Shown one piece after another: positions 1,656 to 64,000 of a stretch of DNA of 64,000 bases (position 1 is its first letter; each line of letters opens with the position of its first letter). The notes beneath the pieces are model-generated. The model did no database searches, had not been told where the DNA came from, and saw only the letters and a list, made by a program, of their open reading frames with translations. Where the stretch lies: contig CAWDSK010000009.1 of the NCBI GenBank assembly GCA_963804995.1, forward strand, positions 64,001 through 128,000. The letters are read 5' to 3'. Made by a program: the position numbers and the translations under genes. The stretch is from an uncultured Acidobacteriota bacterium (GTDB taxonomy: Bacteria > Acidobacteriota > Terriglobia > UBA7540).

Positions 1656-1928
1656 TCATTTGGGTGGGACGTAATTGGGCGGGGGCGCTGCGCCTTCACC
1701 GAAGAAGAACCGTTCCATCTGGGTGGCAATGACTTCCTGTGCTTCCTTCGTCGAGGGCACGAGGCGATATTCATTAATCAGCATCCGTAAGTAATCGAGC
1801 CACATTTGCCACGCCTGTTGGGAGACATTGTCGTAGATGCGCTGGCCGAGTTCGCCGACCCACGGAGCCTCCTCAAGACCCGGAAGTTCCTTGTGCAGCT
1901 TTGCACACATCACCATTCGCTGTGCCAT
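1656..1928 (-). CDS. yggX: Fe(II)-trafficking/oxidative damage protection protein (YggX family)
   Basis: MVMCAKLHKELPGL...GELGQRIYDNVSQQAWQMW...MLINEYRL signature. Confidence 0.9.
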   Translation of the reverse strand: MAQRMVMCAKLHKELPGLEEAPWVGELGQRIYDNVSQQAWQMWLDYLRMLINEYRLVPSTKEAQEVIATQMERFFFGEGAAPPPNYVPPK

Positions 1929-2056
1929 AGAGAAGTTATCCTTCGGAGTCCTGCCTTAAATGCAGGGCGTCCTGGCATTTGCTGGCCGCCCCGCGCGCGG
2001 AAACGACTGGCTGCCCCCGCCTGCAACGCCATTATACAGGAAATCAAAAAACGAAA

Positions 2057-3163
2057 CTCTCTGTGACCTCTGTGTCCTCTGCGTGAATCTGATCTTCGGT
2101 TGAGCATCCTGCTTCTTGTCACCTAAACTCAAAAACCTATTCACCACAGAGATCACAGAGAACACGGAGAAAAGAAGAAGAGCTGGGAGCTAGCAAAAAA
2201 ACATCCTTATTTCTGGTTTCTTCCTCCTGACTTGCTTTTCTCTGTGCCCTCTGTGCCCTCTGTGGTGAATCTGTTCTTGGTTTTTCTCCAAGGTTTCTTC
2301 GTCCTCCCGCGTGGATGCCCCTATATCTTGCCATTGAGGAACCGACGTATACCATCCTTCAATATCGTGACATTGAAATTGATCAACAACGCGACCTTGC
2401 ATCCCGATAACTTAAGGTATGTGATGACTTGAGCCTCGTGGATTGGCGCCACAGCCTCAGCAGACTTAACCTCAACGACCACCGACCCTTCCACGAGGAG
2501 ATCAATCCTGTATCCACAATCGAGCTTAACCTGCTCGTAAATGAGTGGCAGTGGCTTCTGCTGCTCAACTCTGAGATGCCGTTTCCCCAGCTCAAATGCC
2601 AGGCAAGCCTCATACGCGGATTCCAGCAAACCCGGACCCAGGGCCTTGTGCACTTGGATGGCGGCCCCGATAATGCTTTTCGTAATGCCGTTCAGCCGCT
2701 CTCTCTCAGTCATTCGCCAATGCCTTCCACCTCGCTGAGCATCTTGGGTGCTGTCGCCGAGACTCAAGAACAAATTCACCACAGAGATCACAGAGAACAC
2801 GGAGAAAAGAAAAAGGGCCAAGAGTTTGGAGAAAGACAATCTTATTTCTTGCTTCTGACTCCTGACTTGCTTTTCTCTGTGACCTCTGTGTCCTCTGTGG
2901 TGAATCCGTTCTTCCGCGAAGCATCCCGCCTCCGGTCACCGAAACGGAACAACCTATTCACCACAGAGATCACAGAGAACACGGAGAAAAGAAAAAAGCC
3001 AGGACGTTGGAGAAGGACAATCTTATTTCTTGCTTCTGACTCCTGACTTGCTTTTCTCTGTGGCCTCTGTGTCCTCTGTGGTGAATCCGTTCTTCCGCGA
3101 AGCATCCCGCCTCCGGTCACCGAAACGGAACAACCTATTCACCACACAGAGAACACGGAGAAA
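2057..3163. repeat. Array of 8 alternating inverted ~35-bp repeats (TTCACCACAGAGATCACAGAGAACACGGAGAAAAG and its reverse complement) flanking the GxxExxY gene
   Basis: Reverse copies at 2057-2087, 2235-2269, 2870-2904, 3051-3085; forward copies at 2140-2174, 2775-2809, 2957-2991, 3138-3163 (partial); ~181-bp tandem unit over 2775-3137. Confidence 0.95.
2321..2713 (-). CDS. GxxExxY protein (PD-(D/E)xK nuclease superfamily)
   Basis: GPGLLESAY motif, RIDLLVEGSVVVEVK, QVITYLKLSG...LLINF; start at MTERE (ATG 2713). Confidence 0.92.
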   Translation of the reverse strand: MTERERLNGITKSIIGAAIQVHKALGPGLLESAYEACLAFELGKRHLRVEQQKPLPLIYEQVKLDCGYRIDLLVEGSVVVEVKSAEAVAPIHEAQVITYLKLSGCKVALLINFNVTILKDGIRRFLNGKI

Positions 3164-3168
3164 CCGAT

Positions 3169-3759
3169 TCATTTCCTCCGGTGAATATCCAAATCGACTT
3201 CTTCGTTCTCAAACAGGGGAAGCTGCGTGTGCGGCTTAAGCACTCCTTTTTGGAACGTGGCGACGGTGCGAAGGGGTTCGGCTGCATTGTCGCTCGGCGC
3301 CGCTTGAGAATGAGCGCGTGTTGCCGGAGGGGGCGGCGTGATGCCGGCCGCCGCGGCATCCAGGGCTTTATTCGCCAGGCGGTCGGCTTCGCGGTTGTGT
3401 TCGCGCAAGACGTGCTGGATGGAAAACGACTCCAGGCGAGCGATCATCGCCTTTGCCTTCTCGTGCAGGGGCTTCAGGTCAGGGCTGCGGACTTTGTAGC
3501 GCCCGGAAATCTGGCGAGCCATCAATTCGGAATCCGTTATCACACGCAGACGAAGATGGCCATGGCTCAGGGCGTATTCCAAGGCCGCCAGCAGCCCCTG
3601 GTATTCCGCAAAATTGTTGGTGGTTTTGCCGATGTATTTCGCAAACCCCGTGACGGATTTACCTTCAGGGGTTTTAACCGTCACGCCATATGCAGCGGGG
3701 CCAGGATTCCCGCGCGATCCTCCGTCGACATGGGCAATGATTTCAGGTGAGGTCGGCAT
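3169..3759 (-). CDS. rnhA: ribonuclease HI family protein with C-terminal extension
   Basis: DGGSRGNPGPA, TNNFAEY, DSEL, REHNREADRLAN motifs. Confidence 0.9.
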   Translation of the reverse strand: MPTSPEIIAHVDGGSRGNPGPAAYGVTVKTPEGKSVTGFAKYIGKTTNNFAEYQGLLAALEYALSHGHLRLRVITDSELMARQISGRYKVRSPDLKPLHEKAKAMIARLESFSIQHVLREHNREADRLANKALDAAAAGITPPPPATRAHSQAAPSDNAAEPLRTVATFQKGVLKPHTQLPLFENEEVDLDIHRRK

Positions 3760-3767
3760 GGTTAGGA

Positions 3768-3840
3768 CAGTGGTTAGTGGCTAGTGGCTAGTGGTTAGAG
3801 AGGAAGGACTAGTGACTAGCCACTGGCAACTAGTCACTGC
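3768..3840. repeat. Heptamer tandem repeat (TAGTGGY)n plus inverted copy
   Basis: gtggttagtggctagtggctagtggttag ... ctagtgactagccactggcaactagtcact. Confidence 0.85.
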
Positions 3841-3845
3841 CCTTA

Positions 3846-4604: not shown

Positions 4605-4859
4605 TTCCTCTCCTTGATAAAATCGCGTTTACTTGATCGGAAAGCCCGCGCCTGCGCCCAATGCGTCTCAACTTCCCTGGTTGAGCATTCTTACACATCT
4701 TGAGGTAATGCCGCAAGGAAGGGAGATGACGGGGTGGTGTCGAAGTTTGCCGTAGAGGCGGCGGAATTTATCCCGATGCTATCGCGACGCCGCCATTTGG
4801 CAGGGTAAATCCAAGGCCACCCAAATTAGCGAAGTCTCCCCTGGGCATCGGGAGCGAAA

Positions 4860-4975
4860 TTTCGGAGTGCGGGAGCTTGCTCCCGCTCTTGCCACCGCTG
4901 ACTCGTCAGCGGTCGGCGTATCGCCGCATCGAGTTGCGGCGAGGGAAAGCGGCGACGAGCCGCCGCACTCCGAAA
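4860..4975. repeat. REP-like inverted doublet (GGAGTGCGG...CCGCACTCC family)
   Basis: tttcggagtgcgggagcttgctcccgc ... aaagcggcgacgagccgccgcactccgaaa. Confidence 0.7.
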
Positions 4976-49237: not shown

Positions 49238-49707
49238 TTCCTTACCCTCCATCCCTACGGTAAGGATATCAATCCCTACCAGTCAGGTCAAACCTTTCGC
49301 CGGGAGAGCCGGTCGCGCCTTCCCACGAGAGGTAATTGTTAGCCACCGAAGGTGTAATGGAATCGTCGTAGGGGCACCCCTCGTGGGCATAGGCGTTAAC
49401 CTAACTCTCAGAAATGCTGATAGCGCGCAGGTTGGCGCAGAGCGAGCCCAGCTCTGCGATTCACGTCATCAGCCCGCACTAGAATCGCAGGGCTGCGCTC
49501 GCCCTGCGCCAGCCGGCCCAGTCCCCCAGTCCCTAGCACCCAGCCCCTAGCCCCCAATCCCCAGCCCCGGTTTTTGGTGGCCTGATTTGGAAGGGCCGGG
49601 TAGAATGAAGCTCACCTGCTCAATGCGCAAAATCTCGGCGGGAAGACAGCAGTGGGAATCCAGTGGTAGCCCCGTAGTGGGAGGAGGATGGCTTGAAACC
49701 AGCAGCT

Positions 49708-60317: not shown

Positions 60318-60989
60318 CTTACTTACCGCCGCCATTAAATACCAGGGGAATGATCTGCAACTTACCCTGCCCCTTCGGAGCATCGCCCCGACGAGTCGGG
60401 GCGCCAGCCCGCGAACCGAAGACCTCCAAAGCAGGTGTGCGTTCACAGGCAATCGCCCTTGGCGGGCTGGCCGGGAAGCAGAAAGGTCTTCGGATACGGT
60501 CCCTCGCCGCAAATTTTGAATGAACCGAAATCCTTGTACCATTCGCCGTCCGGAACCAGCGGATGGGATTCAACCCATAGCCGGAGTGGGGGAAGCATAA
60601 AGATGCTGACCTGAAGGTCAGCACTACAGGCTATACCCGATGCGCCGGGTTCGAGTTACAACAATTTTGCTTTGGACAAAGCGACGGCGGCGGCACGCCT
60701 ACTGCGTGAAGTGTGCTGCCTACTGCTTTCTGCCTACTGCCTACTGCTTTTCGCATCCTGTCCATCAGGTGTTGGCGAATGGCGGGCGGGGGGGCGAAAA
60801 GGTCGGGCTCGGCATCGCGTGTTCGCCTAAACTACGCCCGCAGGCCCACGACTTTTTGTCAATGTAGGGGTTGTCCCAGAAATTGCTCTCCGCGCGGCAT
60901 AGCGCGCGAGGTCCCACCACATTTCCCAACCTCATGCGTTTTTTTCCTATGACTTTTCACTAGCGATTCCGTCGCGCATCTCCTCTCTT

Positions 60990-63847: not shown

Positions 63848-63975
63848 TAGCTAGAAGTAAGGAGCTAGAAGCTAGAAGTTAGAAGCTAGAATCCAGAAGG
63901 GAGTACCCAGTGACCGCGACCTGGGCCAAAACTTCTGCCTTCTAACTCCTAGCTTCTAACTCCTCGCTTCTCGCT
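63848..63975. repeat. Heptamer tandem repeat (GCTAGAA)n plus inverted copy
   Basis: gctagaagtaaggagctagaagctagaagttagaagctagaa ... ttctaactcctagcttctaactcct. Confidence 0.85.
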
Positions 63976-64000
63976 CCTTGCTCCTTACTTCGAGGCCTTC

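Follow-up and report, generated by a model that had tools for sequence, protein, structure and literature searches.

In REPIN/RAYT systems, as the cited accounts describe them, repeats form inverted doublets around a looser spacer and are dispersed as hairpins between genes (PMC3116915; PMC8266576; 10.1101/2021.07.10.451892); near-identical units occur in tandem clusters, each enzyme goes with one repeat flavor, a repeat cluster lies beside the enzyme gene, and turnover is slow, with repeats that persist after gene loss. The RAYT enzyme is an HUH/Y1 transposase, the REP sequence is a palindrome, and RAYT genes are reported to be immobile. In the Ssn/NTS system, according to its description, a small nuclease gene encodes a single domain of the GIY-YIG type (cd10448) and has copies of its own repeat on either side. 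The repeat also occurs in hundreds of copies without the gene, repeat variants are specific to each homolog, and a mobile origin is suspected. The repeats (NTS/SRM) are semi-palindromic hairpins that are cut in single-stranded form, the enzyme acting sequence-specifically near its cognate repeat (Chenal et al. 2025, PMC11893778). Miniature inverted-repeat transposable elements (MITEs) are described as dispersed units of 100 to 400 bp whose ends are inverted repeats and which arose when an element that carries a gene suffered a deletion (PMC3116915). A target-site duplication and a cognate transposase belong to their usual makeup. The GxxExxY proteins are listed as family 114 of the PD-(D/E)xK enzymes, with function given as unknown and with many transfers (PMC3424549).

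The locus described here lies in a 64,000-nt stretch of DNA from an uncultured Acidobacteriota bacterium, the whole of which was analyzed and is called the window, and it resembles REPIN/RAYT, Ssn/NTS, and MITEs in the organization just outlined. It departs from REPIN/RAYT in its enzyme, which is of the PD-(D/E)xK type (PF13366), in its arms, which are purine-rich runs of direct 7-bp words, and in its empty spacers, which contain a piece of the gene's leader. In contrast to the reported immobility of RAYTs, the GxxExxY gene is found at many junctions, and phyla are mixed on its protein tree (in a sample that took the best 80 of 557 cross-phylum matches), although many of these junctions are nevertheless common to several congeners. 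The differences from Ssn/NTS are that the window protein matches PF13366 and TIGR04256 with a PD-(D/E)xK fold, and that a predicted nuclease is here paired with periodic word arrays. Compared with MITEs, no transposase family was matched, and the partner has a hydrolytic nuclease fold. The system would work like REPIN/RAYT and Ssn/NTS and belongs to neither, since membership of both fails on enzyme family and that of REPIN/RAYT also on the build of the repeat. No description of a pairing between GxxExxY genes and repeats was found in the literature searched, which consisted of the main text of papers from outside most subscription journals. The reading that we favor, at a probability of roughly 0.55, is that a nuclease which reads these repeats propagates both its arms and itself by way of DNA cutting and host repair.

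Eight arms that alternate in orientation, beginning with R and ending with F, span positions 2058 to 3161 of the window, and each consists of a short head followed by CACAGAG or CACGGAG words of 7 bp at a 9-bp period. This bears out the eight alternating repeats with 9-bp periodicity reported by the first-pass annotation, the arms being 31 to 32 bp long without the trailing A run instead of about 35 bp. Word doublets number 8 in the window versus 1 in total over 200 base shuffles. The outermost arms are R1 (2058 to 2088, minus strand), with three words and a degenerate outer end, and F4 (3137 to 3161, plus strand), which adjoins the rnhA stop codon and is truncated to 25 bp and two words. The arms between them form three hairpin units: unit 1 (2139 to 2270) is made of arm F1 (2139 to 2170), a 68-bp loop, and arm R2 (2239 to 2270); unit 2 (2774 to 2905) of F2 (2774 to 2805), a 68-bp loop, and R3 (2874 to 2905); and unit 3 (2956 to 3086), a tandem copy of unit 2, of F3 (2956 to 2987), a 67-bp loop, and R4 (3055 to 3086). 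The full-length F arms (F1 to F3) share a single sequence, and the R arms are variable. The F-to-R loops, given earlier as about 60 bp, measure 67 to 68 bp, and the empty R-to-F spacers, given earlier as about 52 bp, measure 50 bp.

The spacer between units 1 and 2 (2271 to 2773, 503 bp) is filled, and on its minus strand it holds a 5' leader (2714 to 2773), the GxxExxY gene (2324 to 2713), and a 3' tail (2271 to 2323). The whole inserted array of about 1.1 kb (2052 to 3168) runs from an rnhA-like stop codon to a yggX promoter-like box, its left edge being approximate to about 6 bp either way. Its host flanks are yggX, for an Fe(II) trafficking protein (1656 to 1928, minus strand; PF04362, NF003817), and rnhA, an RNase HI-like gene (3169 to 3759, minus strand; PF13456, PF00075), both on the strand of the GxxExxY gene. 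The last rnhA codons (3169 to 3186, minus strand) resemble an arm head and pair with arm F4 as a small hairpin, and the rnhA ends of congeners are also word-like; this arm-like end may mark a target preference, or it may be chance. Elsewhere in the window, tandem heptamer arrays were seen at 3762 to 3842, where the array forms a hairpin directly upstream of rnhA, and at 49517 to 49568, 60716 to 60747, 63849 to 63899, and 63939 to 63982. A REP-like imperfect inverted repeat at 4846 to 4975 is of a kind also present at the rnhA-yggX junction of congeners.

The encoded protein of 130 amino acids matched TIGR04256 with 150.6 bits (curated cut-off 35, E = 2e-44) and PF13366 (PDDEXK_3) with 144.9 bits (curated cut-off 22, E = 2e-42), which confirmed the GxxExxY identity assigned at first pass; these were the only matches in the profile searches, and no transposase family was among them. 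The family is very large, all 7,999 of the 7,999 scored candidates being homologs, and the names of close homologs suggest a host within the Terriglobia (Acidobacteriota). In 157 aligned rows, D71 was conserved in 157, K83 and E31 in 156 each, and E81 in 152. The structure model (pLDDT 96.8) was matched by BpuSI (Z 7.7, rmsd 3.2, 95 aligned), the Cas4 protein SSO0001 (Foldseek E 2.8e-3; Z 7.6, rmsd 5.0, 102 aligned), and Hjc (Z 6.2, rmsd 3.4, 87 aligned), with nothing at E 0.001 in Foldseek and no fold match reaching Z 8. By these fold matches and the conservation of D71, E81, and K83, the protein qualifies as a predicted PD-(D/E)xK nuclease. The modeled core fold and the D...E-x-K catalytic motif are shared with Cas4, RecB-like proteins, and Hjc, and its Q-x-x-x-Y motif (Q95, Y99) we take to resemble that of RecB/Cas4. 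The protein differs from these enzymes in that a PDB sequence search gave 0 matches at E 10, that all Z scores were under 8, and that none of its 8 invariant and 21 nearly invariant columns is a cysteine. The PADLOC match to Cas4 was weak (E 0.002), and PHROGs gave a single weak match, to a family with unknown role. Values of dN/dS were 0.07 to 0.09 in the three of six comparisons that were unsaturated; to judge from these sequences, the gene is under purifying selection with its predicted catalytic residues intact.

It had been proposed from the DNA letters that the filled spacer has the same ends as the empty ones and that the empty units are derivatives of the gene-bearing form. All three empty spacers (2089 to 2138, 2906 to 2955, and 3087 to 3136, minus strand) align to the 5' leader of the gene with a score that 0 of 1,000 shuffles reached, and the DNA match runs through the leader in two congeners. 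The alignment to the 3' tail is weak, 16 to 66 of 1,000 shuffles being as good, such that the shared ends stand as a resemblance, mainly to the leader, and not as identity. The second and third empty spacers are identical to each other, and the second matches a C1 copy without a gene at 92% identity. Gene-less copies of the subfamily occur at two other places in the genome, C6:1079331-1079553 (89% identity) and C1:473828-473936 (87% identity), and at the C1:265699 gene the adjoining tandem units have an empty spacer that, judged by eye, reads leader plus tail. Descent of the empty units from a gene-bearing spacer is supported by these alignments. The filled unit may, as had further been proposed, be the autonomous form. 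The loops of most genome-wide hairpins with the same word are unrelated to the window cassette, and the usual dispersed unit is therefore the oriented F-R hairpin and not the 181-bp unit. At G000:C1:473790-473830 (L202 1490-1535), a GGTTGCGGC-type repeat is joined directly onto the truncated arm of the gene-less copy; this repeat has 30 copies by the pattern used, with arms nearby in only 3 of the 30. The sigma-factor gene flanking the C6 copy had no ortholog among 28 congeners (best about 35% identity).

There was a clear association between GxxExxY genes and repeats of this build beyond the window, as the first reading had predicted. All six GxxExxY genes in the same genome have repeat arms, of five word types. 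We extended the sample to 157 genes at 155 loci, comprising this genome, its genus, and the best 80 of the 557 cross-phylum matches, and 151 loci had enough flank for a flank-segment test. A 16-nt segment was common to both flanks at 130 of the 151 loci versus 16 of 300 control open reading frames (ORFs), and triple arms stood on both sides at 72 of 151 versus 3 of 300, a contrast that is overstated because the control flanks are mostly coding DNA; 21 of the 151 loci lacked a shared segment. A word type could be assigned to 116 of the 157 rows and not to the other 41. On a FastTree protein tree of those 116 rows, the word label changed 29 times versus at least 67 times in 200 shuffles, and because kin share labels and two rows are identical, this concordance argues for linkage, not for co-evolution. 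For a residue-to-base code, the best column was T11 against word position 5 (MI 0.52), with 2 independent pairs and p = 1, and co-variation of residue and base was thus unsupported once kinship was corrected.

Within the genome, word types that have a matching gene are represented by 194, 44, 15, and 4 triple arms, and two word types without a matching gene by none. Few of the arms are close to a gene, 8 of 44 and 10 of 194 being within 1 kb of a GxxExxY gene. Two word types form 21 and 101 F-R hairpins, and triple arms fall inside long ORFs in 15 of 44 and 30 of 194 cases, though long ORFs cover 76% of the genome. Across 29 congeners, median arm counts with the matching gene found versus not found were 14 versus 5, 8 versus 0, and 5.5 versus 2 (p 0.009, 0.006, and 0.05, the kin not being independent), and 1 of 6 mismatched gene/arm controls also reached p 0.03.

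These counts bear on the idea that the gene is a passenger, the hairpins being propagated through host recombination or a different enzyme while the GxxExxY gene travels with its linked arms. Linkage alone would yield the concordance of word and clade, numerous hairpin families with no relation to one another occupy the same junctions, and arms are plentiful in genomes with no gene detected: 13 and 10 arm matches were counted in the congener G043 (98% complete, 0 GxxExxY genes detected) and 52 in G009 (80% complete, likewise 0 detected). We nevertheless hold this idea to be unlikely, since arms lie near 6 of 6 GxxExxY genes, arm types have expanded chiefly alongside their matching gene, and the predicted catalytic residues and purifying selection have been retained. 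RAYT and four-helix-bundle genes were tried as drivers and rejected: triple arms lay within 500 bp of 0 of the 14 Y1 transposase (PF01797) matches in the genome, in line with the first-pass view that the partner enzyme is unlike RAYT, and arms lay near 1 of 12 four-helix-bundle genes.

Those 12 four-helix-bundle genes (TIGR02436, G000, e.g., C6:1367450, C6:1186110, and C3:962391) are for the most part flanked by heptamer repeat words of their own, a parallel gene-plus-repeat system with which some junctions are common. At G000:C6:1573614-1575074, a CACCAAG-type GxxExxY gene has a 3' end apparently broken, to judge from the letters, by transposase-like DNA; its closing arm is 1.1 kb away, and its upstream arm encodes the N terminus of the protein. 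At L177 (G006:C350), two GxxExxY reading frames, one of them partial, lie in tandem, each starting within an arm.

That the array is an insertion between rnhA and yggX was upheld by comparison within the genus. Of 24 congeners searched, 21 gave the yggX locus and 18 of those include the rnhA end; in all 18, the junction has neither a GxxExxY gene nor a word doublet. The distance from the rnhA end to the TATAAT box is 7 to 433 bp in 16 of the 18 versus 1,135 bp here, and the remaining two junctions have, respectively, no TATAAT box and 1,116 bp of other genes. Among the junctions at L009, L010, L012, and L013, three genomes have unrelated REP-like hairpins and the fourth has about 1.1 kb of other small genes. 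The presence of unrelated hairpins and other genes at this place in congeners points to the junction being a hot spot.

In the reciprocal direction, both flanks mapped to this genome for 25 of 70 congeneric GxxExxY loci; 4 have the same gene here and 21, at 10 junctions, have no gene here. Of these 21 counterparts, 9 are short and arm-free, 5 are filled by a hairpin that has a different word type and no gene, 6 by a heptamer hairpin belonging to a separate class, and 1 by 2.4 kb of other DNA. The clade of the window protein (77 to 88% identity) occupies four different junctions in the genus. Congener flanks are about 70 to 88% alike, and no target-site duplication was delimited at this divergence. 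The 76 GxxExxY genes fall into 40 junction groups, and 51 of the 76 share their junction with another congener. From these alignments the cassette appears to move, and the number of shared junctions argues that it does so slowly or to favored junctions.

The same data are relevant to a domesticated host function like that of Ssn/NTS, in which the enzyme would recognize its repeats so as to limit or direct recombination of DNA that enters the cell or is being replicated, the repeats having grown as a by-product. The NTS-ssnA-NTS arrangement, as described, has the same anatomy, with cognate repeats on both sides of a small single-domain nuclease gene (PMC11893778). Many GxxExxY genes keep one junction across congeners, and matches were found in 7 of 72,556 plasmid records and in none of 50,697 phage records. 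The patchy presence of the gene (0 to 10 per congener), the 40 junction groups, the internal stops in 9 of the 157 copies, and the intermixing of phyla on the tree are more in keeping with a selfish element, and we regard a host function as improbable.

A different question is whether the repeats act in RNA. The units fold into long stems, and at the window locus these have G-U pairs on the sense strand. Variable arm letters agreed within hairpins at 0.16 versus 0.37 for random arm pairs (14 hairpins), and in a second set at 0.455 versus 0.506 (73 hairpins). On the sense strand of 88 stems, G-U and A-C mismatches numbered 115 versus 105 (26 versus 26 loci), with no excess, and in 46 gene-less hairpins they numbered 23 versus 14 (p 0.19); these counts gave no significant signal of selection at the RNA level. 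Since the words and their left-right polarity are conserved, the letters between words are unpaired, and there is no G-U excess, the protein would more plausibly read DNA than an RNA stem. The upstream neighbor is on the strand of the GxxExxY gene in 113 of 137 cases and the downstream neighbor in 116 of 137, whereas gene-less arms lie between co-directional genes in 50 of 94 cases versus a 59% background, with no enrichment. This difference suggests expression of the gene by read-through. Promoter candidates were one weak sense-strand site upstream of the array and one antisense site, 2 found versus 0.7 expected.

An element like the rRNA intervening sequences, with stems excised from or stabilizing an operon transcript and the gene riding along, would agree with the sense orientation of the genes within co-directional junctions and with the long stems at the window locus. 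We think it very unlikely, given the G-U counts, the unpaired letters between words, the lack of co-directional preference of gene-less arms, and the Rfam search, which found no family at cut-off; its 15 weak matches, all to microRNA-precursor models far below cut-off, were set aside as generic hairpins. Least credible of all is that the tandem 181-bp units are an assembly artifact, a possibility named at first pass: units 2 and 3 are 96% alike and two spacers are identical, but seven differences (six bases and one gap) separate the two complete tandem units, which are 182 and 181 bp long, unit 1 is only 60 to 75% like the other units, and similar tandem arrays stand at other loci and in other assemblies, and an artifact would change only the copy number, not the existence of the system.

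Returning to the repeat-reading nuclease, the predicted enzyme would bind arrays of the 7-bp words in DNA and cut beside them, so that the repair machinery of the host would place copies of the hairpins, and less often of the gene, at intergenic junctions. The protein would read the words and not the base-paired stem, since the words are conserved and the intervening letters are unpaired. Enzymes of the PD-(D/E)xK type hydrolyze DNA without a covalent intermediate, and for this reason spread would presumably proceed by break repair or by gene conversion with another copy as donor, a route that also fits the swapping of junction content between species. An empty spacer may have arisen when the reading frame dropped out from between the leader and the tail, after which recombination between arms of the same direction would have produced the 181-bp tandem. 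The gene may have no promoter of its own and may be expressed by read-through from the host operon. A fuller version, which we put forward tentatively and would not yet back over its competitors taken together, is that GxxExxY drives transposase-free selfish DNA, in which a 130-amino-acid nuclease reads an array of 7-bp words with a specificity retuned in each clade and cuts at junctions, and host repair inserts hairpins or the gene, displacing rival hairpin families.

If the favored reading is true, a very large protein family with no assigned role would gain a function, and hundreds of intergenic repeats per genome would be explained. The design of an enzyme with its cognate repeat, known with the HUH fold in RAYT and the GIY-YIG fold in Ssn, would have arisen a third time, on the PD-(D/E)xK fold. 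The natural pairs of 130-amino-acid nucleases with different 7-bp words would make a recognition code directly testable, and such pairs could yield compact sequence-specific nucleases. The window locus would be a good test case, as the gene, its arms, the deletion derivatives, and a known empty site are found together.
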